From Patescibacteria group bacterium (lineage in GTDB: Bacteria; Patescibacteriota; Minisyncoccia; Phycocordibacterales; UBA918): 64,000 nt of DNA. Position 1 is the first letter of the stretch. Each line of letters starts with the position of its first letter. A model generated the notes under the pieces. It searched no databases. It saw nothing but the letters and a program-made list of their open reading frames with translations, and was not told the origin of the DNA. The DNA lies in NCBI GenBank assembly GCA_019745315.1, contig JAIETH010000002.1:32654-96653 (forward strand). The letters are read 5' to 3'. Positions 1,282 through 61,177 of the stretch are shown here, piece by piece. The translations under genes and the position numbers were made by a program.

Positions 1282-1666
1282 CATGAAAAAATCACACATT
1301 CTTACAACATTCCTAGCCCTCGGACTCCTCTCCGTGCCAGCTCTAAGCCATGCTCAAACAGTGACATTGGCAACATATATTGGTGTAGCAATCAGCTTCA
1401 TCAATGACTATCTCATCCCTCTTATTGCTGCTATTGCATTTCTCTTTTTTATCTGGGGAATGGTCAAGTATTTTATTATCGGGGCAACCAATGAATCGAG
1501 TCGCGAAAGCGGGAGTCGTCTTGCGATATGGGGCATAGCCACTTTTGTCGTTATCGTGAGTGCGTGGGGACTTGTGAATATGCTCATTACAGGATTTGGT
1601 GTAGAAAATCCATCAACTCTTCCCTGTCCTGATTACGGACGCGACCGCAACCCTAATTGTATATAG
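1282..1666 (+). CDS. Small secreted or membrane protein with a signal peptide and two transmembrane helices. It is pilin-like, possibly of the TrbC/VirB2 family that is common in CPR genomes.
   Basis: Translation from the internal ATG at 1282 gives MKKSHILTTFLALGLLSVPALSHAQ, a signal peptide, followed by two hydrophobic helices. The listed ORF from 1013 has an implausible N-terminus. The ORF is followed by an intrinsic terminator. Confidence 0.45.
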
Positions 1667-1683: not shown

Positions 1684-1717
1684 CAAAAAAACGCGACGTA
1701 TATGTCGCGCTTTTTTG
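1684..1717. terminator. Intrinsic terminator (cgcgac-gtatat-gtcgcg followed by a T-run, with an A-run upstream). It is bidirectional and sits between the plus-strand ORF and the 16S 3' end.
   Basis: Read directly from the sequence. Confidence 0.6.
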
Positions 1718-1926
1718 TTTGTGTAATATAGAAAGAAATTTCATCTGTACACACGTCACTTTTATAGAGAAATACGTATCTTCTTTTGCCTTACCCTTGA
1801 ACCTAGTCTTTCCCAGTGTCGCATAGATTTTGAGACCATACCATGATAAGTCTATTTCGGTGCTCAATTGAGGCACCGAATATCGACCGGTAAGGTAAAG
1901 AGCATGAAAGCTCAGTACCATTTCCG

Positions 1927-3385
1927 ATTGGAATTAATCCACGACCAGCTTCCGCTAGCCGTGCCTTGTTACGACTTAGTCCCTGTCATCGAGTTTACCG
2001 TAAGCCTACACGAGGTAGGATTTCGGGCACTCCCGACTCCCTTGACTTGACGGGCGGTGAGTACAAGGCTCGGGAACGTATTCACCCCGGCGTTGCTGAT
2101 CCGGGATTACTAGCGATTCCGACTTCATGAGGGCGAGTTGCAGCCCTCAATCCGAACTGGGGGTACTTTTATAAGGATTTGCTCCACCTTACGGTATTGC
2201 GTCCTGTTGTGGTACCCATTGTATCACGAGTGCAGCCCAAGGCATCAAGGGACATGCGGACCTGGCGTCATCCTCACCTTCCTCCCCCGTGAGGGGGCAG
2301 TCTCGCCTGACAAATATAACAGGCAACGAGGGTTGCGTTCGTTTCCCCACTTAAGGGAACAACTCAAGCCACGAACTGACGACGGCCATGCATCACCTGC
2401 CATACACCCTCGAAGGCTTCCCCGGTTTCTCGGGGCGTGCAGTATGGTTTCTAGCCTTGGTAAGGTTCCTCGCTTAGCGACGAATTAAGCCTCATGATCC
2501 ACCGCTTGTGCGAGCCCCCGTCTATTCCTTTGAGTTTTAATCTTGCGATCGTACTTCCCAGGCGGCCCGCTTAACGCGTTAGCTTCGCCTCAGAGAGGGT
2601 CGATACTCCCTAAAGCTAGCGGGCAACGTTTAGGGCGTGGACTACCGGGGTATCTAATCCCGTTCGCTACCCACGCTTTCGTGTTTCAGTGTCAGGAATA
2701 CGCCAGTAAAGTGCCTTCGCATTTGGTGTTCCCCATGATATCAACGGATTTCACCCCTACACCATGAGTTCCCTTTACCTCTCGTATCCTCGAGCGTAGC
2801 CGTTTCCTCCGCGATTACCGGGTTAAGCCCGGTGATTTAACGGAAGACTAACTACGCCACCTACACACCCTTTACGCCCAGTAAATCCGGATAATGCTCG
2901 GGGCCTCTGTATTACCGCTCCTGCTGGCACAGAGTTAGGAGCCCCTTATTCATGAGGTAACGTCAAAATTTCCTCCCTCATAAAAGATGTTTACGTCCCT
3001 AAGGACTTCATCCATCACGCGGCGTCGCTCCGTCAGGCTTGCGCCCATTGCGGAAGATTCTCGACTGCAGCCTCCCGTAGGAGTATGGCCCGTGTCGCAG
3101 TGCCATCGGTGGGGGTCAGCCTCTCAGCTCCCCTACGCGTCGTAGCCTTGGTGAGCCATTACCTCACCAACTAGCTGATACGTCGCAGGCTGTTCCCAGA
3201 GCGATAAATCTTTACTCTCTCGAGACCATCACGTATTATCTCGCCTTTCGACGAGTTATTCGTGACTCTGGGGTACATACCTACGTGTTACTACCTCGTC
3301 TGCCATGGGTCTAAACCCATTCGACTTGCATGCCTCATCCACGCCGCCAGCATTCATCCTGAGCTAGGATCAAACTCTAATTTAA
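1927..3385 (-). rRNA. rrs: 16S ribosomal RNA, about 1.46 kb, with no large insertion.
   Basis: On the reverse complement there are universal landmarks: a 5' end ...AGAGTTTGATCCTAGCTCAG at about 3359-3378; a 515F-region variant TTACCGCTCCTGCTGGCAC; a 1492R-region GCCTTGTTACGACTT; and helix 45 with a GGAA tetraloop. The 3' tail reads GGAUUAAUUCCAAU rather than GGAUCACCUCCUUA. Confidence 0.9.
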
Positions 3386-3854
3386 GACGATGGTGCAGCT
3401 TACGCTGCGATCATCGATTTTGTCCAAGGATAAGGCAGAAGAAAATACCTATTATTTTTTCTGCCCTCCTACTTATTTTCTATTGTGTGCTGAATGTATG
3501 TAGGCTCCTGGCTTACATACATTCAATTTCGTGTTGTACATATGAAATTGTATGGAGACCATACAACTCTTGTTCATCAGAATACTAAAAATATACGTGC
3601 ATATGATTAGCACTTTTGACTCCCAAGATCTTTCAAAAAACAATTCCCTGCGCACCCAATCCACTGGTCTTTTTCAAGGCCATTTCGGTATTTGAAGGAA
3701 TGAAAAACGCCTTCAAAAGGCAGTGGAAGCATTATACGGATTTGAGGCGTGCCGTCAAGCAAATGCCCTATGGGGATAGAGGGACGCCTCACCAAGCGGC
3801 CGTATACATAAAAAAGACAAGCATTTCTGCTCGTCTTTGGGGGCTCTCGGGCGA

Positions 3855-5230: not shown

Positions 5231-6184
5231 TCAGCCATCAAAAACCAAAGCTCCCACAACGGCATCATTCTGACCGTGAACCAACAGTGATTCCCGCGCC
5301 ATCCACATGCCGCCCATCGGCTCAAACTCGCCGCTTCGCGTGTTCAAACCAAAGAACATCCGATAGATCATGTTGCGCGCCCCGAGAGCATCGCGTCGCG
5401 TCGGCATGATGAGCGGCTGCGCAAATGCCGGACCAGACCGACGAAGACGACTTTCAACCTCCCCTGGCGAAAGGCGCTCATTGCGCTTCACCCCATAGAG
5501 AGGAGCTTCTTTGGCTGCGTCATGGAGATACACGGCAACCATGTTGCATCGAGTGCCCCGCAAGGGACGCAGAACGCACGATCGATCGAGCGGCGGCGAC
5601 ACGTAGCCACCTGCCTGCTCACTCGGATCTGTCAGCCACTCGATGCGACGCCAGAGATTCATCCGCTCTCCGTAATGCTTATCACCCTCGTGCCGCACAG
5701 AGCTGATGGCTCGATGCTCGAGAGGGTGATAGTCACGATCTTCTGGGCGAGAGCGCACCAAGAGCGCGCCCGCATGACGAAATGCCTGCTCGAGAGAAAG
5801 ACCTTCTCCCAATGCCAGCGCATCGTCAGTGATCCTGTGAGGAGAGCTGACCCACCGAAATTCAGGCCACATACCCAGCATCTCGCTGAGCCTGCTTTCG
5901 AATTGTGGCACGAGGACTTTCGCCACCCCAATACCACACGGACGCTCCTCCACCTCAAAGAGATGGAGCTTTTCCTCAGGATCAACCACGCAGTCGAGCC
6001 GAACAATGAGCGAAGGACTGCCGTAGTCTCGACCCACGAGGGTATCACCCTTCGGATAGATACCGCGCCACTCCTTGAGCAGCGCCAGAGCTTGGTCGAT
6101 CGCCCCTGTCGAAAAAACCTCGACATGGTCGGACACGTTGAGCGTCCAACCATTTGGCAAAACTTTCTGTTCGAACGAAGCCAT
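5231..6184 (-). CDS. Hypothetical protein of 317 aa, encoded in a GC-rich island of about 58% GC.
   Basis: Long ORF with a strong AGGAGG Shine-Dalgarno motif 8 nt upstream of its ATG. Its base composition is strikingly different from neighbouring genes. No confident family assignment was possible. Confidence 0.55.
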   Translation of the reverse strand: MASFEQKVLPNGWTLNVSDHVEVFSTGAIDQALALLKEWRGIYPKGDTLVGRDYGSPSLIVRLDCVVDPEEKLHLFEVEERPCGIGVAKVLVPQFESRLSEMLGMWPEFRWVSSPHRITDDALALGEGLSLEQAFRHAGALLVRSRPEDRDYHPLEHRAISSVRHEGDKHYGERMNLWRRIEWLTDPSEQAGGYVSPPLDRSCVLRPLRGTRCNMVAVYLHDAAKEAPLYGVKRNERLSPGEVESRLRRSGPAFAQPLIMPTRRDALGARNMIYRMFFGLNTRSGEFEPMGGMWMARESLLVHGQNDAVVGALVFDG

Positions 6185-6734
6185 TGGCTTTTGCCTCCTA
6201 CATGTGTGACGAACTCAGGAATGTCTCCTAAAAACAAAACGACCCCATGCGGGGCCTTGCTTGTCTCTAGATTCCTGTCGGAACTACGCACTCGCAAGAC
6301 CCCTCTGTTTCCAGAGAAGAATAGCGAGGAGGACGAATCCAATGCGATGTTCCATATTTCTACCTTATCAAACCAAAAGTATGTGTCAAGAAAAATCTTT
6401 ACGTTCCACTGCGCACAAAAAAAAAGACGCATGAGCGTCTCAGGAAAGAACGGATGGCGACGAGTAGGATACACGGAATCGGTGCCAGCCTATCCGCATA
6501 AATAGGAGAGGTGAGCCCCGCAACTTCCACGAAGAGGGCTTTTCTTCCTATGAGGCATAGCCTCATCCGCAGACTATTCAGCACGGCGTGCTATCCGCAC
6601 AGAAGTCATATTTGCGCTTTTCACCAAACCTGGCCGGGAGTGCCCAGCATGCGCAAACCTCGCCGCCACCTCAAATATCATACACGCCCCATACAGATAC
6701 GCAAGAAACGACTCTCTGTGCTACACTATTCCGG

Positions 6735-17598: not shown

Positions 17599-17651
17599 AC
17601 ATGTATTGTAACAGAGAGCTGAGCATAAGAAAAAAGTATCTACTAGAAAAC

Positions 17652-17839: not shown

Positions 17840-17948
17840 ATCTGGCGGCTACCTACTCTCCCTCTTGCGAAGTACCATCGGCGCTAGAAGGCTTAACTTC
17901 CGTGTTCGGAATGAGAACGGGTGTGACCCTTCCGCCAAACCACCAGAT
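17840..17948 (-). rRNA. rrf: 5S ribosomal RNA, 109 nt.
   Basis: The reverse complement AUCUGGUGGUUUGGCGGAAGGGUCACACCCGUUCUCAUUCCGAACACGGAAGUUAAGCCUUCUAGCGCCGAUGGUACUUCGCAAGAGGGAGAGUAGGUAGCCGCCAGAU aligns to the 5S consensus, including the CCGAAC and GUAC loop E regions and helix I. Confidence 0.85.
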
Positions 17949-18012
17949 TATAATGTTCGATTGTCAAAAGTATGGGGCGAACGGCGTAAAATAGTGCCCC
18001 ACACTATTTTAC

Positions 18013-18034
18013 CCCTTCCGCCAAACCACCAGAT
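18013..18034 (-). repeat. Partial 5S rRNA copy covering the first 22 nt of the 5S gene.
   Basis: A direct repeat of the 5S 5' end at 17927-17948. It is preceded by an 11-bp hairpin at about 17985-18010. Confidence 0.6.
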
Positions 18035-18293
18035 TTAAATATTTAATCTGTTGGAATTTAATATCAAGTGTAGTATTTTTGCAACTCAAAATCAAAACCT
18101 AAGCAACTCTATGAATGCATAGTATTCCTTGTCTTGAATCCTGAAATCGAAATTTGCATGACGATGTTCAGCATTCCTTACAGGAAATACATTCTATTAG
18201 TACACCTCGGCTCCGCATATTTCTATGCTTCCACCTGGTGCCTATCAACCTGATAATCTCTCAGGGAATTTAATGATTCCTCATCTTAGAACT

Positions 18294-18326
<33 letters not shown>

Positions 18327-18452
18327 ATTCCGAACGTAGCTACAGGGCAATGCCGCTGGCGCGACAGCCCTCAGACCAGAGGTTCGTTCATCCCGGTCCT
18401 CTCGTACTAGGGACAAATTTCCTCAAGAATCGACGCCTGCAGTAGATAGGAG

Positions 18453-18486
<34 letters not shown>

Positions 18487-18561
18487 GCGTAACTTTTTAA
18501 TTGGCGAACAGCCAAACCCTTGGGACCTGCTCCAGCCCCAGGATAAGTTGAGCCGACATCG

Positions 18562-18927
18562 CTGTCATTTTTCCCACATTACTGTGAGGATCGGACTATA
18601 TCTTCATCCATACGTAATTTCGCATGGAGATCGGCGTGTAGTCTCTACGGGATCATGTACCAATATGCTTTCGGAATGAAATTAATCTGAAATTGATACT
18701 GACTTCCCACGGTATTGTCCACCTTCTCATTCTCTCTTACGAGAGCGGCTGATGTGGAGTTCACCGTTATAGCCAATTTGTTTTTGTACGGCATTACTGC
18801 CATAGGCACCCCGATGTATTTCGTTTGTTCTATATGGACTTTCGTCCATACAATCTTCGCTCACTCGGTCATGCAAAAGTAAACTTTTGCGCGACGCTCA
18901 TTCGCTTGATTGTAACTACATAAGTTA
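18562..18927 (-). ncRNA. Group I intron of 366 nt in 23S domain V, inserted after the U equivalent to E. coli U2500. It carries no ORF.
   Basis: Exon continuity GGCACCU|...|CGAUGUCGG. The 5' exon ends in U and the intron ends in G. The core sequences GUAGAGACUACACGCC and AAGAUAUAGUCCGAUCC resemble group I P7/J8-7. Confidence 0.65.
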
Positions 18928-19495
18928 AGGTGCCGAACCGTGCCGTCGCTATGGACGCTTGGGCACGACTAGCCTGTTATCCCCAGGGTAACTTTTATCG
19001 GGTAATCTCCGGCCGCATCTAACGCGTACCATCGGTTCACTATGCTCCGCTTTCGCGTCTGCTTGGCATCTACGCCTTACAGTCAAGCTGGCTTATGCCA
19101 TTACACTATCGGCACGGTTTCCATTCGCGCCTAGCCAACCTTGAGACCCCTCCGTTACTTTTTAGGAGGGTAGCGCCCCACTAAAACTGCCTACCACGCA
19201 CTGTCTCAGCATGATTTTTTCATGCTGGTTAGAAACTGCCCGAGTAAAGAATGGTATTTCACTGACGAGTCCACACTTCCCAAAAGAAATGCTTCAACCT
19301 CTCCCATCTATTCTACGCATCACAAGAACAGCCTCAATACGAAGCTACAGTAAAGCTCCTGGGGTCTTTTCGTCTAACTGCAGGTACCCGGCATCTTCAC
19401 CGGGATTGTATTTTCACCGAGCAAGTCCTTGAGACAGTTCCCCAGTCATTACGCCATTCGTGCACGTCGGAACTTACCCGACAAGGAATTGCGCT

Positions 19496-19722
19496 CTTCT
19501 ATTCCTCAAAGAAGGACTCTGTCTTCGTCCGTCCGCATAGGCGACTAAGGACGCGTGACATCTGGTCTCTTTGTGGTCACGTTTTGACTAAGCGTACATC
19601 TCTGTACGCAAGGTAGCTTTTTGAATGATCATCTACGTATCTCTCATAGATGAATTTGCGTCCATTTACCAATCCATAATCGTTCCAGTCATTCGGTTCA
19701 CTTCATTACTGAAATGAACCGA
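19496..19722 (-). ncRNA. Insertion of 227 nt in 23S domain IV at the L1931-equivalent site. It is a candidate small group I intron or intervening sequence.
   Basis: Helix 69 is intact (AGCGAUAACUAUAAUCGUU). The exon reads CUAAGGU|...|AGCGCAAUUCC. The insert begins with U-exon, ends with G, and contains CCUUAG, which is complementary to the 5' exon. Confidence 0.5.
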
Positions 19723-22106
19723 ACCTTAGAACGATTATAGTTATCGCTGACATTGACCGGGGCTTACATAGCCCAGCAGTACAGATTGCTCCATACCACC
19801 TTCCATGTTTAACCTTCCGGCATTGGTCAGGCGTCACCCCCTATACATCCACTTACGTGTTCGCAGGGAGCTGTGTTTTTGGTAAACAGTTGCCAGGGAA
19901 TCTTTCGCTGCGGCCTCTCACCTTGCGGCGAGGAGGCAGGCCTTATCCCGAAGTTACGGCCGCTTTTTTGCCGAGTTCCTTAAGGACCTCTCACTCGTTC
20001 GCCTTGGTCTACTCGACCTGATCACCTGTGTCGGTTTGCGGTACGGAACCGTTTTGTGTAACGTAGAAGTTTTTCTTGGAAGCGTGCTCCCACAATTGAC
20101 GTGTCCGAAGACACATCTTCAGGTTCAACTCGGATGTGCATTAAAGCAGAAGTGCGGATTTACCTACACCTCACCCTCGAAGCACCAACGAAAATCCAGT
20201 AATTCGTTTGAAGTACAACCCTCCGTCCCTCCATAGAAACAAAACGGTGTTATGGAATATTAACCATATGTCCATCGCCTCCCCCGTTCGGGATCGGCTT
20301 AGGCCCGACTAACCCTTGGCTGATCACCATCGCCAAGGAAACCTTGATCTTTCGGCGGGAGGGGCTCTCACCCTCCTTGCGGTTACTTGTGCCGGCATTC
20401 TCACTTCCATACGCTCCAAGTCGGGTCTCCCCTCCTCTTCATCGCAGAATGGAACGCTCTCCTACCACTTACTCTGTACGAATACAGAGCAAATCCGCAG
20501 TTTCGGTACTATGCTTGAGCCCCGATCATCTTCGGCGCAGAAACTCTCGACGAGTGAGCTGTTACGCTATCTTTAAAGGATGGCTGCTTCTAAGCCAACC
20601 TCCTCGCTGTCAATGAATTTCCACCTCCTCAAGTTGCACTGAGCATAGATTTAGGGACCTTAACTGGCGATCTGGGCTGTTTCCCTTTTGACCAATGGAG
20701 CTTATCCCCCATAGTCTAACTGCCGTGTTTTTAATCCTTGGTATTCGGAGTTTGATAGGTCCCACGAGATTTCTCCCTGTTGGGACCTTCCAGTGCTCTA
20801 CCCCCAAGGGGAACACACGACGCCAACCCAAAAGCTGTTTCGGAGAGAACCAGCTATTACGGAATTCGATTAGCTTTTCACTCCTTACCACAAGTCATCC
20901 GATGGTTTTGTACGGCCAACCGGTTCGGGCCTCCCCTTATCTTTCGATAAGGTTCACCCTGCTCATGGCAAGCTCATCCCGCTTCGGGTCGCATTCTATC
21001 CCTTATAATTTCGCGCTATTAACACTCGCTTTCGCTCTGCCTCCGGGGGTCGTCCCCTTAGACGAAGGAATACAATGCACTCGCCGGCTCATTCTTCAAT
21101 AGGCACGCGGTCACCAGACTTACGTCCAGCTCCCACTCTTTGTAGGCATACGGTTTCAGATCTATTTCACTGTCCTCACCGGACTGTTTTTCACCTTTCC
21201 CTCACGGTACTCGTTCACTATCGGTCTCTTAAAATATTTAGCCTTAGGAGTTAGTGCTCCCAGATTCATTCGAGCTATTCATGTCTCGAACTACTCAGGA
21301 ACGACAACAAGAAAGTAGTATTGATTTCGTATACGGGACTATTACCCACTGGGGTCACGCTTTCCAGCGTGTTCTACTACCAATACTTTTTGTAACTTTC
21401 CTCAACTAAATGAAGTTGCCGCCCTACAACCCCGACTATGTAAACACAATCGGTTTGGGCTGATCCCGTTTCGCTCGCCGCTACTAAGGGAATCGCAAGT
21501 GTCTTCTTCCTGACTATAATGGCTCCGCCAGTTGGCAGAATTTAGCCAGAAAGAAAACACCTTGTATTGCTTTCTTTTCCTCCAGGTACTGAGATGTTTC
21601 ACTTCCCTGGGTATGCAAATGTCTTACGACAAATCTCTATCGTAGATAGAGGGGTTTCCCCATTCGGAGATCCTCGGTTATAACGATTGCTTGGCATCTT
21701 ACCGAGGCTTATCGCAGCCATGCCACGTCCTTCTTCGCTTTTAAGAGCCTAGGCATCCACCGTACGCCCTTCATTCCTGTAAGGAATGCTAGACACCGTT
21801 TAAGGCACTTTCCATTCCATTACATGAATACTAAACACCGCTGTTTAGATTTTGATTTTTGTTGTTGTTCGCATGACACACACTCTGACGAAAAGACCCT
21901 CTTTAAAGACATGTGTGCACCATGCGTCACGTGTATGCAACAAAACATACACGATTGCTCGATACTTCCTACATGATATTAAATTTTCAACGAGCGAGTG
22001 TCCCGTATAAGGACTAAAAAAACCGCTTTGAGCGGAGAGAGAAACCCACAGAGAGTCCAACTTCCGCTTACAGGTTTTTATAGTTACTCATAGACACGTA
22101 GCCGCC

Positions 22107-23800: not shown

Positions 23801-24208
23801 TTATTTGAGTGTGACTTTTGCGCCAGCCTCTTCCAATTTTGCTTTGAGTGCATCTGCATCTTCCTTCTTGAGACCTTCCTTCATTACTGATGGAGCGGCG
23901 TCAACCAAGTCCTTAGCCTCCTTAAGACCGAGACCAAGTACCTCCTTAACAACCTTGATTACTGCAATCTTCTGCGCACCAGCGTCAGTCAATTCAACAG
24001 CAAATGTGCTCTGTGCTTCCTCTCCACCTCCTGCTGCAGGAGCTGCAACTGCTACAGCTGAAGCAGATACTCCAAACTTCTTTTCAAAAACCTTCACAAG
24101 CTCATGGAGCTCGAGAACGCTCATTTCTTCGATAGCTGCAACGATTGTCTTGAACTTTTCTGGAACAACAACTTCTTCAGTTGTTGTTACTTCTGTTGTT
24201 TCATCCAT
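23801..24208 (-). CDS. rplL: 50S ribosomal protein L7/L12.
   Basis: An Ala-rich hinge and the C-terminal KEAKDLVD...[20 protein letters not shown] region. Confidence 0.85.
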
Positions 24209-24226
24209 ACGAATAGTATTAACTGA

Positions 24227-24712
24227 TTAAGATTTCTTTTCTGCAATAGCATTGAGAGCCAACACCAATCCTTGTATAGGTGAGTTGATTACGTTTACAA
24301 ACATTCCACGAAGCACTGGGAGTGCTGGGATTGATGCAATGGTAACCATCTCCTCCTTATTTTTGTACGCTCCTGCAAATACTCCTCCCACAATCGCAAC
24401 AGCTCCTTTGAATTTCTTTTCAAATTCACCAATGCTTTGTGCTGGCGCAATTGCGTCTGTGCTGTGCACAAATGCAACTTCTCCAGGAAGCTCAGGCATC
24501 GTACCTGTGTATCCTCCTTCATCGAGAGCACGTGCCATCAATGTCTTCTTTGCAACGATATACCCAACGCCTCGAGCGCGAAGCTCACGACGCATTTCGG
24601 TTGTATCTTTACCGGTGAGCCCTGTAAATTTTGCAAAAACGACTGTCTCTGCACCTTTACGCGCAGAACTCAAGCGCGATAGAATTTCTTGCTTTTTCCC
24701 TTTCGAGATCAT
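24227..24712 (-). CDS. rplJ: 50S ribosomal protein L10.
   Basis: L10-like sequence MISKGKKQEILSRL... immediately upstream of rplL. The start was chosen at an internal Met. Confidence 0.7.
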   Translation of the reverse strand: MISKGKKQEILSRLSSARKGAETVVFAKFTGLTGKDTTEMRRELRARGVGYIVAKKTLMARALDEGGYTGTMPELPGEVAFVHSTDAIAPAQSIGEFEKKFKGAVAIVGGVFAGAYKNKEEMVTIASIPALPVLRGMFVNVINSPIQGLVLALNAIAEKKS

Positions 24713-25588: not shown

Positions 25589-25892
25589 AGCCCCCTCCTC
25601 ATAGATCCACATCAAGCCTACCTTACGTATACAAAAACGCAATCAACAAGATTTCCACATTGATATCCCCATGTTATCAACATACCCATCAAACCATTTC
25701 TATATGGGTGACATACCTCTCAGATACCAGTCAGATACCAGACACAAAGCTTTTCCAAGCGTATCCCTTTACGACATACCCTTCCGCTACCTGCAAAACG
25801 ACCTCCCTTCAAGGTATGTCGTAAAGGGAGATGCGCAGACTTTTCAACAAACTATCCCTAACCTCTCCACATACTTATCCACATATTTCAAA

Positions 25893-32783: not shown

Positions 32784-33812
32784 ATGGCATTCGCGAAAAA
32801 AGCAAAAAAAAGTCCTTCAATACCCGCAGCCCGCGGCATCGAAGACATTAAACAAGCACTTCAAAGTATTAAGACTAAGTTTGGTGACGATTCTATTATG
32901 ATGCTCGGGGAGCGTCCTAAGGTTAATGTCGATGCTATTCCCTCAGGCTCAATCGGACTTGATTACGCTCTCGGTATCGGTGGATATCCTCGTGGACGTA
33001 TCATAGAAGTATATGGTCCTGAGTCTTCAGGAAAGACAACCCTATCTCTCCATGCTATCGCAGAAGCACAGAAGACTGGTGGTGTATGCGCATTCATTGA
33101 CGCAGAGCATGCGCTTGACCCTGAGTACGCACAACGGCTTGGTGTGAAGATTGAGGATCTTCTCATTTCACAACCTGATACAGGTGAACAGGCGCTCGAA
33201 ATCGTTGAGTCTCTCGTGCGCACTGGGAAGATCGATATCATCGTCGTTGACTCAGTTGCAGCACTCACCCCAAAGGATGAAATCGAAGGAGAAATGGGTC
33301 AGCAGCATGTAGGGCGACAAGCGCGTCTCATGAGTCAAGCACTTCGTAAGCTCACTGCAATTGTTTCTAAATCAAAGACCATCATTATCTTTATCAATCA
33401 GATTCGCATGCAGATAGGTGTGATGTTTGGCAATCCTGAGACAACGACTGGAGGAAAGGCTCTTAAGTTTTACACTTCTGTTCGTTTGGATATTCGTCGC
33501 ATAGCTCAGATCAAAAAAGGAGAAGAGGTTGTGGGAGGCCGGCACCGCATCAAGGTTGTAAAAAATAAGGTTGCTGCTCCCTTCCGTACTACGGAATTTG
33601 ATCTTCTCTATAACGAAGGAATATCAAAGGAGGGCGAGCTTCTTGCTCTTGGAGAGCGATTCGGTATTGTTCAGAAATCAGGAGCTTCGTACTCATATGG
33701 CGAAGCGAAGCTGGGTCGAGGATATGACGCAGCACGCACTGCCCTTCGCGAAGATCCGAAACTTCAGGATGAGCTCCTTAAAGAAGTACGTGCAAAGCTT
33801 CAAGAAACGTAA
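32784..33812 (+). CDS. recA: Recombinase RecA.
   Basis: Motifs GPESSGKTT and [14 protein letters not shown]. Confidence 0.9.
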
Positions 33813-36795: not shown

Positions 36796-36890
36796 ATTTT
36801 TTCTCTATTAGTAATGGCGATAACGTACCACAAAAAAGGCCTGTTCGCAAGAAGGGCTCGCGCCCTCTCGGAAATGATATACTAGCTCTA

Positions 36891-42571: not shown

Positions 42572-42609
42572 ATATCCACGTTATACCATATTTGACCCTG
42601 GCTGCGTAC

Positions 42610-44559: not shown

Positions 44560-44587
44560 GCCTATAAGTATATCACTGATGTTCTCC

Positions 44588-45183: not shown

Positions 45184-48100
45184 TTATACCAAGGTCACTC
45201 GATATGTTCGTTGATCAAGAGTGAGGGCTTCTCCGTCAGAAGAATCAAAACGAATATCTGTAGCATTCACCGTACGTGCAATCATATCTCTATACTCTGC
45301 CACTATGCTCTGACCCTCTCCATCAGTGTCTACAACAAGAACAATACCGTCTTGTGGCGCGTACCCTGACTGCTTTCGTAATTCTTGAATATGGCGCATA
45401 AGATCTCGCACCTCCCCTTCACGCGCGAGTTCTGGTGTGATCTCTGAATCAAGGGCAACCTCGCTTAATAGGGACTGGTCTTCTACGATCTGTTTTACAT
45501 TCACCTCTTCCTTGATCAATATGAGAAGATCTTCTGTATTTAAATACTCAGCACTCTTGATGCGAAGTGTTTGAAGAGGCTGACGAACTTTTACTCCCAC
45601 CTCATTACGAGCCTCAAGCGCCAAAGATACAACATCTCGTACTTTTTGCATTGCGCGCAAATCTTCTTCTTTTGGAGAAATTGAAATTGAAGGCCATGAT
45701 GCAAGGTGCACACTTATAGGATCAGCTTCTTCGCGCACAACTTGGAATAGGTGCTCAGCAAAAAACGGCATCGCCGGAGCCATCACAAGTGATAGCGTTT
45801 TAAGAATATAACGAAGCGTTGCAAGTGTTGCTCGTTGATCTTCCTCTCCCCCATACTTCAATCGCTCACGTGAGCGTCGCAAATACCACACCGAGAGATC
45901 GTCAATAAAGCCAGTAATTGGTCGCGTTGCTCGATCAAGCTCATACTCTTCCATACCGAGAGTTACATCCGCGACCACCTCTGACATCCGCATCAATATC
46001 CACGTATCAAGTACATGTGTTGAACCAAGCGCTTCTCCTGCTGGCACATCAGACTCTTTATACAACTCATAGAATGAAAGCACATTAGCCAAACGACCAA
46101 TGTTTTTGCGCCCAAGCTCAGCAAGACTTTTTTCAGAAAAGTTAAGATCTTCACCTCGAATGATTGGAGACGAGAGTAGATAAAAACGAAGTGTGTCTGC
46201 GCCATAGACATCAACAACATCCATGGGATCAGGATAGTTTTTTAGCTTCTTTGACATCTTGCGCCCGTCTTCAGCTAACACCAATCCGTTCACAATAACG
46301 TTCTTATATGGCGATCTTCCAAAAAGAGCTGTTCCAAGTACGATAAGAGAATAAAACCACCCACGAGTTTGATCTACTCCTTCCGCAATAAAATCAGCAG
46401 GATACCCTATTTCTTTCTCTGGGTTAAAACGATCAGTATTTTCAAATGGATAATGCTGTTCTCCATATGGCATCGAGCCCGATTCAAACCAACAGTCAAA
46501 TACATCTGGTACGCGTACGAGTGTTTCTCCATCAGTATCTAGAAGTTTAATTTCATCAATATACGGGCGGTGATAATCAAGTTCGTAATTTCGATTATGC
46601 GGCAATGGTACAAACTGAAGCTCTCGCACCTCTGCATTTGTAAAATACTCGCCTGAGTTACGCATCAGTTCGGTCTTATCTATATCTGCACCGAGAGCCA
46701 CCGACTCAAGTCCAAAGAGAGGCCCTGCGTGACTAATGATAAGGATATTCTTGCCCTTAAACTTCGCATCAATATCATAGAGAAATTCACCCACCCTTTT
46801 CTGTACATCCCGACGATTTTCAAGATTCCCAATTTTTGTGAGATATCGTGATTTCCAATCAGGAAAAAGTGCACTGTGTTCTGCCCATGTCTTCCCTTCA
46901 AAATCAGGACCGATCTGCATTTCACCAATTCGATCGTCTTCAATCATCGCTGAATCAGGAAGGTTAAAATGTTTCTGCAAAATTTCTGCAGTTTGTTTTG
47001 TGCGCTCGTAACCAGAGTGGATGATGAGATCGATTTTTTTATCTTTGTACTCTCCCGCAACCTTCTCTACCTGCTCTATCCCTTTTTGTGTCAAAGGATT
47101 GTGAGCCTCCTTTTTGGTACTTACTACGTCAGCCGCATTGCTTTCAGCTTCGCCGTGACGCATGAGGAAATACTGATTACCAGACTTTGGCACATGTGAC
47201 GCAAGCTCCTCGAGTGAGCCAAATACTTTATAGGTATTTGCTTTTTTGTTTTTCCATACCGGAAGCGGTGCTCCCCAATACCGCTGACGAGAGACCGCCC
47301 AATCACGTGCGCCCTCAAGCCAATTTCCAAAACGAGCTGAACCAATATGTTCTGGCACCCATCCAACTTTCGAATTTTCTTCTACGAGCTTATCTTTAAA
47401 ATCGGTAACCCGCACAAACCATGAAGACGTTGCATAGTTAAGAAGTGGTGTCTCACAACGCCAACAGTGCGGATAGCTGTGCACAATGTTTTCTTTTCCA
47501 AAAAGGCGTCCGCGCTCTTTAAGCATCTTTAAGATCAAAACATCTGCATCGGTATGAAGAATGCTCTTCTCAGAATCATCTTTCGGCTTCACAGGGCGCC
47601 CAGAGAGATCAGTAATATGCGACATGAAGTTCCCTTCTGTATCTACATGATGTACTACTGGAATTTCTTCCTTTTGTGCAAGAACAAGATCTTCTTCTCC
47701 GTATGCAGGAGCCAAATGCACTGCGCCTGTTCCGCTTTCAAGTGTTACATAATCAGCATGATAAATTTTCCATGCATTTGTTTTATTCTCTATATCGCGA
47801 TCAGCATAATATTCAAATGGAGGTATGTATGATTTTCCAACTAACTCTGAACCCTTAAACTCTTCCACTATTGAATAGTCTTCAGTCCCGAGCTGAGAAA
47901 TTCGCTCTTTCGCAAGAATAACAAAATCTTTTTTCCCTTCTAGAGAAACTTCAACCTTTACATACTCGTGGTCATTATGAACGGCAGCTGCCATATTGCC
48001 TGGAAGCGTCCACGGTGTAGTTGTCCACACAAGAAGAGACGTATCAGTCACCTCGCGAGCCTCATCCAGAAGCGGAAGCTTCACAGTAACCGCAATATCT

Positions 48101-48735
48101 TTTATATCTTTATAGCCCTGGTTTACTTCAAAGTTTGAAAGTGTGGTGCCGCAACGGGGGCAGAAGTGCATGGACTTAAATCCTTCGTATACCAACCCTT
48201 TTTTATTAAGCTCAGAAAAAACCCACCACACACTTTCAGTGTATGACGCATCCATTGTCTTATAGTCATCGTCCATATCAGCCCAACGACCGAGGCGCGG
48301 AATGATACGCTTCCAATCATCCGCATACTCCATCACAGTATCAGCACATGCTTGATTGAATTTCTCTACCCCAAGCTCTTCAATATCTCTTTTAGTAGCA
48401 AGTCCGAGCTTTTTCTCGATGATGTTTTCAAGAGGGAGTCCGTGACAGTCCCATCCCCACTTACGAGTGACATGATATCCGCGCATCGTTCTATAGCGTG
48501 GAATGGTGTCCTTAATAGTTCCTGCAAGAATATGTCCGTGATGCGGAAGCCCAGTTGCAAACGGTGGCCCGTCATAAAAAACGTATTCACCAAGCGGAGA
48601 TTCTTTTTCTAATGACTTTTCAAAAATCTTTTCTGTATTCCAAAACGCAAGAACAGCTTCCTCACGCAAAGCGACATCACTCACCTTTTTTTCTGTTGTA
48701 GTATCTGGTGTTTTTTCCATAACAAATCCCCCCAC
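45184..48735 (-). CDS. ileS: Isoleucine--tRNA ligase (type 2) with an inserted histidine-phosphatase (PGAM-like) domain.
   Basis: Shows HIGH (PHHGHIL), the editing domain, WCISR-like RDWAVSRQRYWG, KMSKK and the C-terminal domains. About 195 extra residues with LMRHGEAESN and ILIISHAGPL motifs are inserted between PLPVW and YHRPYIDE. The likely true start is MEKTP at 48720. Confidence 0.85.
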   Translation of the reverse strand: MGGFVMEKTPDTTTEKKVSDVALREEAVLAFWNTEKIFEKSLEKESPLGEYVFYDGPPFATGLPHHGHILAGTIKDTIPRYRTMRGYHVTRKWGWDCHGLPLENIIEKKLGLATKRDIEELGVEKFNQACADTVMEYADDWKRIIPRLGRWADMDDDYKTMDASYTESVWWVFSELNKKGLVYEGFKSMHFCPRCGTTLSNFEVNQGYKDIKDIAVTVKLPLLDEAREVTDTSLLVWTTTPWTLPGNMAAAVHNDHEYVKVEVSLEGKKDFVILAKERISQLGTEDYSIVEEFKGSELVGKSYIPPFEYYADRDIENKTNAWKIYHADYVTLESGTGAVHLAPAYGEEDLVLAQKEEIPVVHHVDTEGNFMSHITDLSGRPVKPKDDSEKSILHTDADVLILKMLKERGRLFGKENIVHSYPHCWRCETPLLNYATSSWFVRVTDFKDKLVEENSKVGWVPEHIGSARFGNWLEGARDWAVSRQRYWGAPLPVWKNKKANTYKVFGSLEELASHVPKSGNQYFLMRHGEAESNAADVVSTKKEAHNPLTQKGIEQVEKVAGEYKDKKIDLIIHSGYERTKQTAEILQKHFNLPDSAMIEDDRIGEMQIGPDFEGKTWAEHSALFPDWKSRYLTKIGNLENRRDVQKRVGEFLYDIDAKFKGKNILIISHAGPLFGLESVALGADIDKTELMRNSGEYFTNAEVRELQFVPLPHNRNYELDYHRPYIDEIKLLDTDGETLVRVPDVFDCWFESGSMPYGEQHYPFENTDRFNPEKEIGYPADFIAEGVDQTRGWFYSLIVLGTALFGRSPYKNVIVNGLVLAEDGRKMSKKLKNYPDPMDVVDVYGADTLRFYLLSSPIIRGEDLNFSEKSLAELGRKNIGRLANVLSFYELYKESDVPAGEALGSTHVLDTWILMRMSEVVADVTLGMEEYELDRATRPITGFIDDLSVWYLRRSRERLKYGGEEDQRATLATLRYILKTLSLVMAPAMPFFAEHLFQVVREEADPISVHLASWPSISISPKEEDLRAMQKVRDVVSLALEARNEVGVKVRQPLQTLRIKSAEYLNTEDLLILIKEEVNVKQIVEDQSLLSEVALDSEITPELAREGEVRDLMRHIQELRKQSGYAPQDGIVLVVDTDGEGQSIVAEYRDMIARTVNATDIRFDSSDGEALTLDQRTYRVTLV

Positions 48736-48788
48736 CTCCCTAGGCTTTTCATAGTACCACTATCTCAGGAAGGCATCAAAAATGACGC

Positions 48789-53530: not shown

Positions 53531-53574
53531 TGGAGTATTCTACCAGATCCTTTTTGTTCCATTAAAATACAGCA

Positions 53575-55310: not shown

Positions 55311-56012
55311 TTAGTGTTTTTCTAAACCTTCAAGCAGTTCTTTGGTTGTGCGCAATAATTCTTCTTCATACATCGGGAGCTTAAACGAGTGATCTGCGCC
55401 TTCTATAACCCTCAATACACCTCCGGTCGCAGAAGCAATAATTTTTTCTGAGTTAGCAAGCGGAATCACTGAATCAGTAGTTCCGTGGATAATGGCAATG
55501 AGAGCATCGTCTGTTTGTATATCCTCAAAGCTCATTTGAATATCGAGGAGATTTTTTATTTCTTTGAGCTGTGTAGTAAGAAGAGACGAGATATTTTCCT
55601 TTTCACTCACCCCAATTGCAGGGGCCCACATGATTTTTCCAGTAATGTGCGGATGCTCATATGCGAGAACCAAACCTCCACCAAAGCTTTTTCCAATAAG
55701 CACTATTTCTTCAAAGCCATTGTGGAGCAAGTATTCTACTGACGCCTCCATTTCTGAGTAGAGCTGTTTCAATGTCTTGGTCTGCACATCCGCCTCCCCC
55801 TCCCATGCGTGCATACGTACAGACGTATGACCCAGACCAGTTATTATCTGGGCCAAAGGAGCAAACCGATCACTCAACGCTCCACCACTAATACCAGGCA
55901 GAAATAGAACAGCTACATCACCTGCAAACTCTCCTTGTTCCAGTAAAAGGGTCGAACTCCCAACACTAATCTCTTTTCTCATGTTCGTAGTATACCAAGG
56001 AGTATCGCTCAA
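55311..56012 (-). CDS. Alpha/beta hydrolase fold protein.
   Basis: The GKSFGGG nucleophile elbow and a downstream His. Confidence 0.6.
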   Translation of the reverse strand: MSDTPWYTTNMRKEISVGSSTLLLEQGEFAGDVAVLFLPGISGGALSDRFAPLAQIITGLGHTSVRMHAWEGEADVQTKTLKQLYSEMEASVEYLLHNGFEEIVLIGKSFGGGLVLAYEHPHITGKIMWAPAIGVSEKENISSLLTTQLKEIKNLLDIQMSFEDIQTDDALIAIIHGTTDSVIPLANSEKIIASATGGVLRVIEGADHSFKLPMYEEELLRTTKELLEGLEKH

Positions 56013-60156: not shown

Positions 60157-60579
60157 TTATTTTACTTCAACGCCCATTGAACGTGCAGTACCTTCAATAA
60201 TACGCATTGCAGCTTCTACTGATCCGGCATTGAGATCTGCCATCTTCTCTTCAGCAATTGCCTGAACCTGCGCCTTTGAAAGCGTTCCTACCTTAGACGA
60301 AAGATTCTTTCCTGAACCACTCTCCTTTCCAATCGCCTTAAGAATAAGACGAGATGCTGGAGAAACCTTTGTTATGAAATCAAACGTACGGTCATCATAT
60401 ACGGAAATTTCAACTGGGATAATTGAACCCATTTTATCGCGTGTACGCTCGTTAAATTGATTTACGAACTCACCGATATTAACTCCAGCCTGACCAAGAG
60501 CAGGACCTACAGGAGGCGCTGGAGTTGCCTTTCCGCCAGCGATCTGGAGCTTAAGCTTTTTTACTATTTTTTTCGCCAT
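60157..60579 (-). CDS. rplK: 50S ribosomal protein L11.
   Basis: The N-terminus [25 protein letters not shown]. Confidence 0.9.
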
Positions 60580-60631
60580 ATTTATTGTGGTGTTACTATA
60601 CTGATTTTTTGAAATTGAGCAAGGACGCCTC

Positions 60632-61177
60632 TTATGCGCGCTTTACCTGAAGGAAATCAAGCTCAACTGGAGTTTCACGACCAAACATTGAAACCAGAAC
60701 CTTTACCTTGCCCCGCTCCTCATCAATTTCCCCAACCTTACCTTCAAGTTCACGGAATGGTCCGTCCACAATGGTTACAAGATCATGGATTGAAAGGTCA
60801 ACTTTGTGCTTAACAACTTCCGTCTGCATACGTCCCATAAGAGCATCGAGCTCATCTTTTTGAAGAGGTACTGGCTGCGTACCGCTTCCCACAAACCCTG
60901 TTACGCGAGGCGTGTTACGAACCACATACCATGACTCGTCATTTACCACCATGTCTACGAGAACATATCCCGGATATACTCGCTCTTCTTCAACGATACG
61001 CTTTCCTCCTTTCACGCGGATCTTTTTTTCTACAGGAACCAATACTTCAAAGATTTGATTCTGCATTCCCAAAGATTCAATGCGCTGCTTCAAGTTTCGA
61101 GCAACTGCATTTTCATATCCTGAGTACGTATGAATCGCGTACCAGTGTCGCTCATTATCACCGAGTTGTTTTGCCAT
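60632..61177 (-). CDS. nusG: Transcription termination/antitermination factor NusG.
   Basis: An NGN domain ([11 protein letters not shown]) and a C-terminal KOW ([28 protein letters not shown]). Confidence 0.85.

Follow-up and report, generated by a model that had tools for sequence, protein, structure and literature searches.

Loss of the anti-Shine-Dalgarno sequence from the 16S rRNA of a Paceibacteria member and a leaderless-type promoter signature at its gene starts

The 16S rRNA gene and its 3' tail

We analysed a 64,000-nucleotide stretch of contig JAIETH010000002.1 (hereafter the window, meaning this whole stretch), which carries a 16S rRNA gene whose 3' tail lacks CCUCC, the core of the anti-Shine-Dalgarno (anti-SD) sequence. 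In textbooks, bacterial translation begins with pairing between the Shine-Dalgarno (SD) sequence and the anti-SD, an interaction that is rarely lost completely. The gene and its flanking elements were as follows.

1927-3385, minus strand: 16S rRNA gene, full length (Rfam RF00177 SSU_rRNA_bacteria, 1392 bits, model positions 1-1533)
1940-1963, minus strand: helix 45, CACGGCUAGC-GGAA-GCUGGUCGUG, with all 10 pairs formed and a GGAA loop (covariance-model alignment)
1927-1939, minus strand: 3' tail of the 16S rRNA, 13 nt, GAUUAAUUCCAAU (covariance-model alignment)
3424-3442, minus strand: leader arm of a putative pre-16S processing stem, UCUUCUGCCUUAUCCUUGG (predicted with RNAduplex)
1779-1799, minus strand: trailer arm of the same putative stem, CAAGGGUAAGGCAAAAGAAGA (predicted with RNAduplex)
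1685-1716, minus strand: intrinsic-terminator-like hairpin and U run, about 210 nt past the 16S 3' end (read from the sequence)

The 3' end of the gene was re-scanned in window positions 1800-2250 with the Rfam covariance model, and the posterior probability of the alignment was maximal ("*") at every position. The tail GAUUAAUUCCAAU, which would end at the predicted mature 3' end, differed from the consensus GAUcACCUCCUUu (also written GAUCACCUCCUUU) and was homologous to E. coli positions 1530-1542 (GAUCACCUCCUUA), with AUUCC in place of CCUCC. An earlier, sequence-only reading of this DNA had described helix 45, with its GGAA loop, as intact and CCUCC as changed to AUUCC behind it, and both were borne out by this alignment; the tail string that it gave as 13 nt actually had 14 letters, as the closing G of helix 45 was included. 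CCTCC was not found in the 230 nt 3' of the 16S end, a stretch in which the trailer arm of the processing stem and the terminator lie. The leader and trailer arms could pair by 6 + 12 bp around a bulge, which resembles an RNase III processing stem. Flanked by such a stem and a terminator, the gene looks like a complete, self-contained and independent transcription unit, and it is unlinked from the 23S-5S genes (17840-21783), with about 14.8 kb of protein-coding genes between them.

The source of the window is an uncultured member, of ultra-small cell type, of Paceibacteria (Parcubacteria, candidate phyla radiation (CPR)/Patescibacteria). Its RecA (32784-33812) matched an NCBI "Patescibacteria group bacterium" protein at 100% identity, with relatives annotated as Paceibacterota, Parcubacteria or Adlerbacteria, and its 16S rRNA shared 87.7% identity with the metagenome-assembled genome (MAG) UBA918 and about 78% with Minisyncoccus archaeiphilus. 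The helix-45 type was common to the window and named Paceibacteria MAGs. The order of the ribosomal protein genes was assigned with Pfam.

60157-61177, minus strand: nusG-rplK pair, without rplA (uL1) after rplK

After rplK comes folA on the other strand and not rplA, and rplJ-rplL lie 36 kb from nusG-rplK, at 23801-24712. Within the 64-kb window, the missing rplA after rplK fits the uL1-lacking Paceibacteria (PMC9297842, PMC12641178).

Distribution of the loss among relatives

One genome per GTDB species was scanned with the pattern AAGTCGTAACAAGGCA-N8-GGAA-N8-TGGAT, which returned at least 120 loci; the figures given here for loci L001-L120 are those among the matches listed. CCUCC was missing in 53 of these 120 loci, 44 of which had the helix-45 type of the window (CACGG[C/G]TAGC) and five more the closely related CAC..TAGG type. 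The CCUCC-less loci took in Kaiser-, Nomura-, Ryan-, Jorgensen-, Taylor-, Lloyd-, Lipton-, Staskawicz- and Nealsonbacteria as well as Minisyncoccus archaeiphilus, and 16S identity among them dropped to about 75-78%. Their tails included GGATTAATTCCAATTGGA, GGATTAACTCAAATTGAG, GGATTAATTCAATGTGAA, GGATCAATTAAAC and GGATCATTTATTT, and the tail type of the window recurred in L006, L018 (Kaiserbacteria), L041, L059, L112 and L115. L111 (NZ_AP038758.1) belongs to M. archaeiphilus PMX.108, which is in culture and is the phylum's type species, and its tail GGATCATTTATTTATATTTTG (16S tail GGAUCAUUUAUUU) was also without CCUCC.

The canonical sequence was kept elsewhere among the matches listed: loci with a CAT-type helix 45 retained GGATCACCTCCTTTCT (Magasanik-, Uhr-, Falkow-, Moran- and Kerfeldbacteria and relatives), and six loci of the CAC..TAGC form kept the anti-SD. 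It was kept as well in Yanofskybacteria (L021, L060), which have a close CAA variant of helix 45.

A metagenome scan for the exact helix 45 of the window gave 120 contigs, 119 of them without CCUCC and one with CCTCC. Tails in this set included GGATCACCTTC, GGATCACTTCC and GGATCAATTCCAATCGGAA, the last one nearly the window's own, and stepwise intermediates were seen among the contigs (CACCUUC, CACUUCC, CAAUUCC); the exact 36-nt tail sequence of the window had no match in the metagenome collection. Since the same or similar tails stood behind the same helix 45 in independent assemblies, an assembly error or a pseudogene feature does not account for them, and the claim of a real loss was supported. 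The tails varied between related genera (UUCC, UUCA, CUCA, GUCA, AUUAAA, UUUAUUU), which argues against a conserved new anti-SD. The loss is old and real, and it is neither a re-coded anti-SD nor an artefact.

Shine-Dalgarno and compensating motifs at gene starts

Open reading frames (ORFs) of at least 90 aa were picked mechanically with the first ATG as the start, and internal ATGs served as the control. SD signals were measured as SD 4-mers at -16..-7 and as duplexes with ACCUCCUUA of -4.5 kcal/mol or below.

E. coli, 50 kb (positive control): 4-mers 46% versus 5% in the control; duplex 64% versus 17%
Window, 58 ORFs: 4-mers 8.6% versus 14% in the control; duplex 17% versus 26%
53 anti-SD-less loci, 290 ORFs: 4-mers 10% versus 11% in the control; duplex 19% versus 23%

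No SD enrichment was found in any gene class of the window. Duplexes with the window's real tail were not enriched either (17% of ORFs versus 21% in the control), and GGAA, the complement of the tail, was present upstream of 2 of the 58 window ORFs versus 6.9% in the control. Other tail-complementary k-mers upstream of the same 58 ORFs were found once (GGAAT, GAATT) or not at all (AATTAA, TGGAA). A compensating SD was rejected by these duplex energies and k-mers. G was depleted at -14..-7, with 10-18% in the window versus the 37-49% reached in E. coli, and an unbiased k-mer test returned GGAG and AGGA for E. coli and TATA, TAAT, ATAAT and TATAA for the window and the anti-SD-less loci.

The statement that native genes have no SD motifs thus held over the 58 ORFs, where they were at or below background, and failed at two genes with G-rich, SD-like runs upstream (GAGGAGGGGG and AGGGAGGTGGGGGG).

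25589-25610: G-rich run upstream of a CDP-alcohol phosphatidyltransferase gene (start 25588)
48721-48750: G-rich run upstream of ileS (start 48720)

The run before the CDP-alcohol phosphatidyltransferase gene was kept in the relatives L126 (GGGAGGGG) and L122 (GAGGGGG). The further suggestion of SD-independent initiation was supported within the 64-kb window and its relatives, where SD was at or below background and no tail-complementary motif was seen.

-10 boxes at start codons

The AT-rich k-mers were position-specific. TANNNT beginning at -13/-12 was found in 25.9% of window ORFs versus 2.0% in the control, and hexamers with at least 4 of 6 matches to TATAAT peaked at a spacing of 6 nt, with 10.3% in the window and the anti-SD-less loci versus about 0.8-0.9% in the controls. 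Shadow ORFs, whose starts were chosen in the same way, were used as a further control, and the count was repeated without stop-containing (TAA/TAG) hexamers. A -10 box at a spacing of 6-7 nt was present in 17.9% of window ORFs versus 2.4% of shadow ORFs (p = 6e-4), and in 15.7% versus 1.3% for the 53 anti-SD-less loci (p = 7e-14). We therefore rejected the explanation that the peak at -12 is an artefact of the in-frame TAA/TAG codons bounding ORFs, as it survived both the shadow ORFs and the removal of these hexamers.

TGn preceded these hexamers in 6 of 11 cases in the window and 31 of 75 in the relatives, versus 2-10% in the controls, which gave an extended -10 promoter box with the consensus TGnTAnAAT, 6-7 nt before the ATG. 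T stood at -1 in 56% of window starts versus 20% in E. coli; together with the A of ATG it makes a pyrimidine(-1)/purine(+1) start dinucleotide that would put the A of ATG at +1. T(-1)A(+1) is the preferred transcription-start dinucleotide, and TGn is a feature of sigma-70 extended -10 promoters. Examples of the leaderless type and one further promoter were the following.

17599-17623, minus strand: cTGtTACAATacatgt-ATG, gene start 17598, extended -10 box 6 nt before the ATG
53531-53555, minus strand: cTGgTAGAATactcca-ATG, gene start 53530
55983-56007, minus strand: tTGgTATACTacgaac-ATG, gene start 55982
36866-36890, plus strand: aTGaTATACTagctcta-ATG, VanY-like gene, start 36891
42572-42596, minus strand: aTGgTATAACgtggatat-ATG, glyS, start 42571
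44560-44584, minus strand: gTGaTATACTtataggc-ATG, start 44559, a promoter of its own 28 nt after the preceding gene on this strand

Among the curated genes of the window, 16 of 54 had a -10 box 4-10 nt upstream, and 7 of these 16 sit 4-28 nt behind the preceding same-strand gene. The box of the VanY-like gene was kept in L126 and L122 at 9-10 nt, and that of glyS (TGnTATAAc) in L126, L124 and L122 at 6-11 nt from the ATG. The window was compared with three relatives that are syntenic with it and whose public gene calls were made independently (P0005, P0006, P0020; RecA identity 86-93%). Their called starts were ATG in 57 of 58 cases, and the box was also kept before a 214-aa gene. Conserved SD-less leaders of 15-35 nt preceded ftsK, efp and rpsF in the window and the three relatives, and the internal cistrons recA, ssb, metG and a 128-aa gene begin 2-20 nt past the upstream stop, again without SD. 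Judging from the promoter boxes, transcription of many genes here probably starts at the start codon, and their mRNAs would be translated as leaderless mRNAs.

A covarying hairpin of tail and trailer

The remaining UUCC of the tail can pair with the sequence just behind it.

1922-1933, minus strand: mini-hairpin UUCC-AAUC-GGAA, with its 5' arm at the former anti-SD position and its 3' arm in the trailer

In the subclade of the window the two arms change in step (TTCC/GGAA, TTCA/TGAA, CTCA/TGAG, GTCA/TGAC, TCCT/AGGA). For the covariation test, the 5' arm was fixed in register and the analysis was restricted to the GGAU(U/C)A..UUC subclade. Of the 25 tails in the genome set, 15 formed 4 of 4 Watson-Crick pairs with their own trailer, versus 2.5% with the trailers of sequences having a different arm, and none of 5000 permutations reached the observed mean pairing. 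The metagenome set gave the same picture, with 4 of 4 pairs in 33 of 74 unique tails versus 7% when cross-paired, and again 0 of 5000 permutations reached the observed value. CPR members that keep the anti-SD also pair the tail with the immediate trailer (CUCCUU-ucu-AGGGAG), with a mean stem of 5.5 bp versus 4.1 bp when shuffled. The residual UUCC is best explained by pairing with the trailer GGAA and not by pairing with mRNA, and the mini-hairpin may be a pre-rRNA structure that was kept under selection after the role in mRNA pairing was lost.

Proposed mechanism and alternatives

We give a probability of roughly 0.7 to the reading that the anti-SD decayed in ancient times, that many genes are leaderless from extended -10 promoters, and that UUCC is kept as a hairpin arm. 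On this proposal, CCUCC would have decayed long ago in the lineage to an A/U-rich sequence (here AUUCC), so that SD:anti-SD pairing could no longer place the ribosomes. TGnTAnAAT promoters 6-7 nt before the ATG would drive transcription of a large share of the genes, the mRNA would start at the start codon or a few nt from it, and the ribosome with fMet-tRNA would recognise the 5'-terminal AUG. Closely packed same-strand genes would often have their own promoter of this kind, and the other genes, with short SD-less leaders or with starts 2-20 nt past an upstream stop, presumably use SD-independent initiation or re-initiation. The mini-hairpin would be derived from the CUCCUU/AGGGAG hairpin seen in CPR that keep the anti-SD, and its probable role is in the structure or processing of pre-rRNA.

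The order of events can be approached through relatives that still carry the anti-SD. In ABY1-type CPR loci with an intact anti-SD (46 loci, 261 ORFs), SD was near background (14% for 4-mers, 20% for duplexes), in contrast to 33-43% in a few non-CPR and Saccharibacteria loci, and the ABY1-type loci had a weaker leaderless-type -10 peak of 16%. The tail intermediates in metagenomes and the weak SD use in these relatives suggest that SD use weakened first and that the anti-SD then decayed under relaxed selection in Paceibacteria.

Several results weigh against our proposal. The -10 box was unrecognisable in 14 of 40 "first" genes and stood 11-39 nt upstream in 17 of 40, which indicates leadered SD-less mRNAs, and the close box was seen in about 18-30% of ORFs, with starts picked mechanically as the first ATG. 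The anti-SD-keeping CPR show the same trends more weakly, so the leaderless habit is not specific to anti-SD loss. Kinship of the sequences inflates the permutation tests for the hairpin, and a generic shuffle test over all anti-SD-less loci gave a mean tail stem of 4.75 versus 4.67, which was not significant, so the hairpin is a feature of the subclade. The two G-rich runs described above belong here too, as does the extent of the window, which covers 64 kb of the genome and leaves room for a second rRNA operon elsewhere.

A broader reading holds that Paceibacteria dropped SD-led initiation wholly, that most genes, including same-strand neighbours separated by a few nucleotides, are each transcribed from a separate extended -10 promoter with its start at the A of ATG, and that the old anti-SD is now a hairpin arm only. 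We regard it as tentative, at a little under even odds; if true, this would be the first large bacterial lineage in which the anti-SD is completely lost and initiation relies mainly on leaderless mRNAs. It is unlikely, in our view, that after the loss most initiation takes place on mRNAs with SD-less leaders, the way it does in Bacteroidetes or cyanobacteria, through unstructured A/U-rich leaders and ribosomal protein S1, with TAnAAT as an A/U-rich leader sequence or a non-SD ribosome-binding motif and not a promoter. The 31 of 40 "first" genes with a best -10 match 11-39 nt upstream or none, the conserved leaders of ftsK, efp and rpsF, and the general A/T-richness of upstream regions would all fit this account. 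However, the hexamer signal is sharply position-specific with its peak at 6 nt, TGn precedes the hexamer in 41-55% of cases versus 2-10% in controls, T(-1)A(+1) goes with the hexamer, and the motif fits TATAAT and not an A-run.

A copy problem, that is, an assembly error or a decaying rRNA pseudogene with a canonical 16S copy elsewhere, could be entertained from the 64 kb in view and from the unmatched 36-nt sequence, but it is very improbable: the gene is full length and high scoring between its processing stem and terminator, dozens of independent assemblies have this tail class behind the same helix 45 (one tail, GGATCAATTCCAATCGGAAACG, is near-identical), the missing SD motifs agree with the tail, and the loss has been published for the clade (PMC9297842). 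We give even less credence to a re-coded tail, in which UUCC or AAUUCC, for example, would act as a new anti-SD for an SD that evolved along with it, for instance GGAA or GGAAUU. UUCC is indeed kept in the window and many relatives, but GGAA upstream of ORFs is below its control, related k-mers occur once or never, duplexes with the real tail do not exceed background, and G is scarce at -14..-7. The tails also differ between related genera with the trailer arm changing in step, and Amin et al. found no variant anti-SD with a matching variant SD (PMC6107228).

Relation to known systems

The loss of the anti-SD in this group is not new, as it was published in 2022. Tsurumaki et al. 2022 (RNA 28:1041, PMC9297842) detected CCTCCT in 48% of Parcubacteria and noted an overlap of the loss with the uL1-lacking group; they held that SD helices probably do not form and proposed no alternative mechanism, gene starts are not analysed in their paper, nor is the term "leaderless" used there. 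Their subgroup and the window belong to the same clade and share the loss of CCUCC(U) behind an intact helix 45; the missing rplA after rplK in the window would fit their lack of uL1. The sequence-only reading had called anti-SD loss rare in bacteria, which is right across bacteria and does not apply within this Parcubacteria subgroup, where the loss is ordinary (PMC9297842). In a literature search on the anti-SD and Patescibacteria, that paper alone mentioned the loss, and a search on CPR, Parcubacteria, Paceibacteria, Saccharibacteria and Minisyncoccus returned, within the library searched, no paper tying these lineages to leaderless mRNAs. Relative to PMC9297842, the -10 spacing signal and the covariation of the tail/trailer hairpin are added here; the intermediate tails and the presence of the trait in a cultured relative are further additions.

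In GeneMarkS-2, genomes count as leaderless ("group C") when a Pribnow box stands 6-8 nt from their gene starts (PMC6028130), and a -10 box at leaderless spacing is common to group C and the window. In group C (for example Mycobacterium, Streptomyces and Deinococcus) the canonical anti-SD is kept and SD is used for leadered and internal genes, whereas in the window the anti-SD is gone, SD is seen at no gene class, and the promoters are of the extended -10 (TGn) type, often even between tightly spaced same-strand genes. Bacteroidetes (PMC7797042) resemble the window in that SD motifs are nearly absent (genome-wide in Bacteroidetes), but there CCUCC is kept and occluded by ribosomal proteins, while here the sequence itself is lost.

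Endosymbionts, Mollicutes and some Flavobacteriia have lost the anti-SD sporadically (Lim 2012, PMC3457768; Amin 2018, PMC6107228; PMC10783764); there, as here, the CCUCC core and the upstream SD motifs are gone with no compensating SD. Anti-SD-less organisms numbered 15 in Lim 2012 (PMC3457768) and 128 taxids in Amin 2018 (PMC6107228), and a 2024 study added 96 more bacteria; a matching variant SD was found in none of the three. The sporadic cases come from scattered genera whose genomes are very reduced or AT-rich, in contrast to the class-level environmental radiation described here.

The loss is typical of a very large and abundant environmental lineage, whose ribosomes, apparently also without uL1, must have some other means of selecting start codons. 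For these genomes, gene callers that look for SD sites will put start codons in the wrong place. Since M. archaeiphilus is in co-culture, the promoter signature at the start codon is a testable hypothesis.

Other features of the window

A tRNA-Ile(GAU) gene lies at 517-590, 1.3 kb downstream of the 16S gene, with a T4SS-pilin-like (type IV secretion system) gene (1283-1666, plus strand) and the terminator between them. The 3' half of this tRNA is duplicated 201 nt away (313-341 and 514-542, 29 nt, 97% identical), and three copies of a unit of about 29 nt (23-51, 175-203, 347-375) are spaced about 150-170 nt apart; these repeats could be an integration-site scar or tRNA-derived repeats. The 23S rRNA gene (18175-21783, minus strand) has 3609 nt versus the 2925 positions of the model and contains a group I intron at 18572-18823 (Rfam RF00028, 63 bits) and further insertions, for example one of about 70 nt near model position 230.

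The isoleucyl-tRNA synthetase (45184-48720, minus strand) has a histidine-phosphatase domain (Pfam His_Phos_1, residues 518-687, E = 1.7e-29) inserted so that it splits the catalytic domain. Two long ORFs on opposite strands overlap at 5231-6184 (minus) and 5522-6505 (plus); neither has a Pfam match, and they lie in the protein-coding stretch of highest GC in the window (about 0.52).

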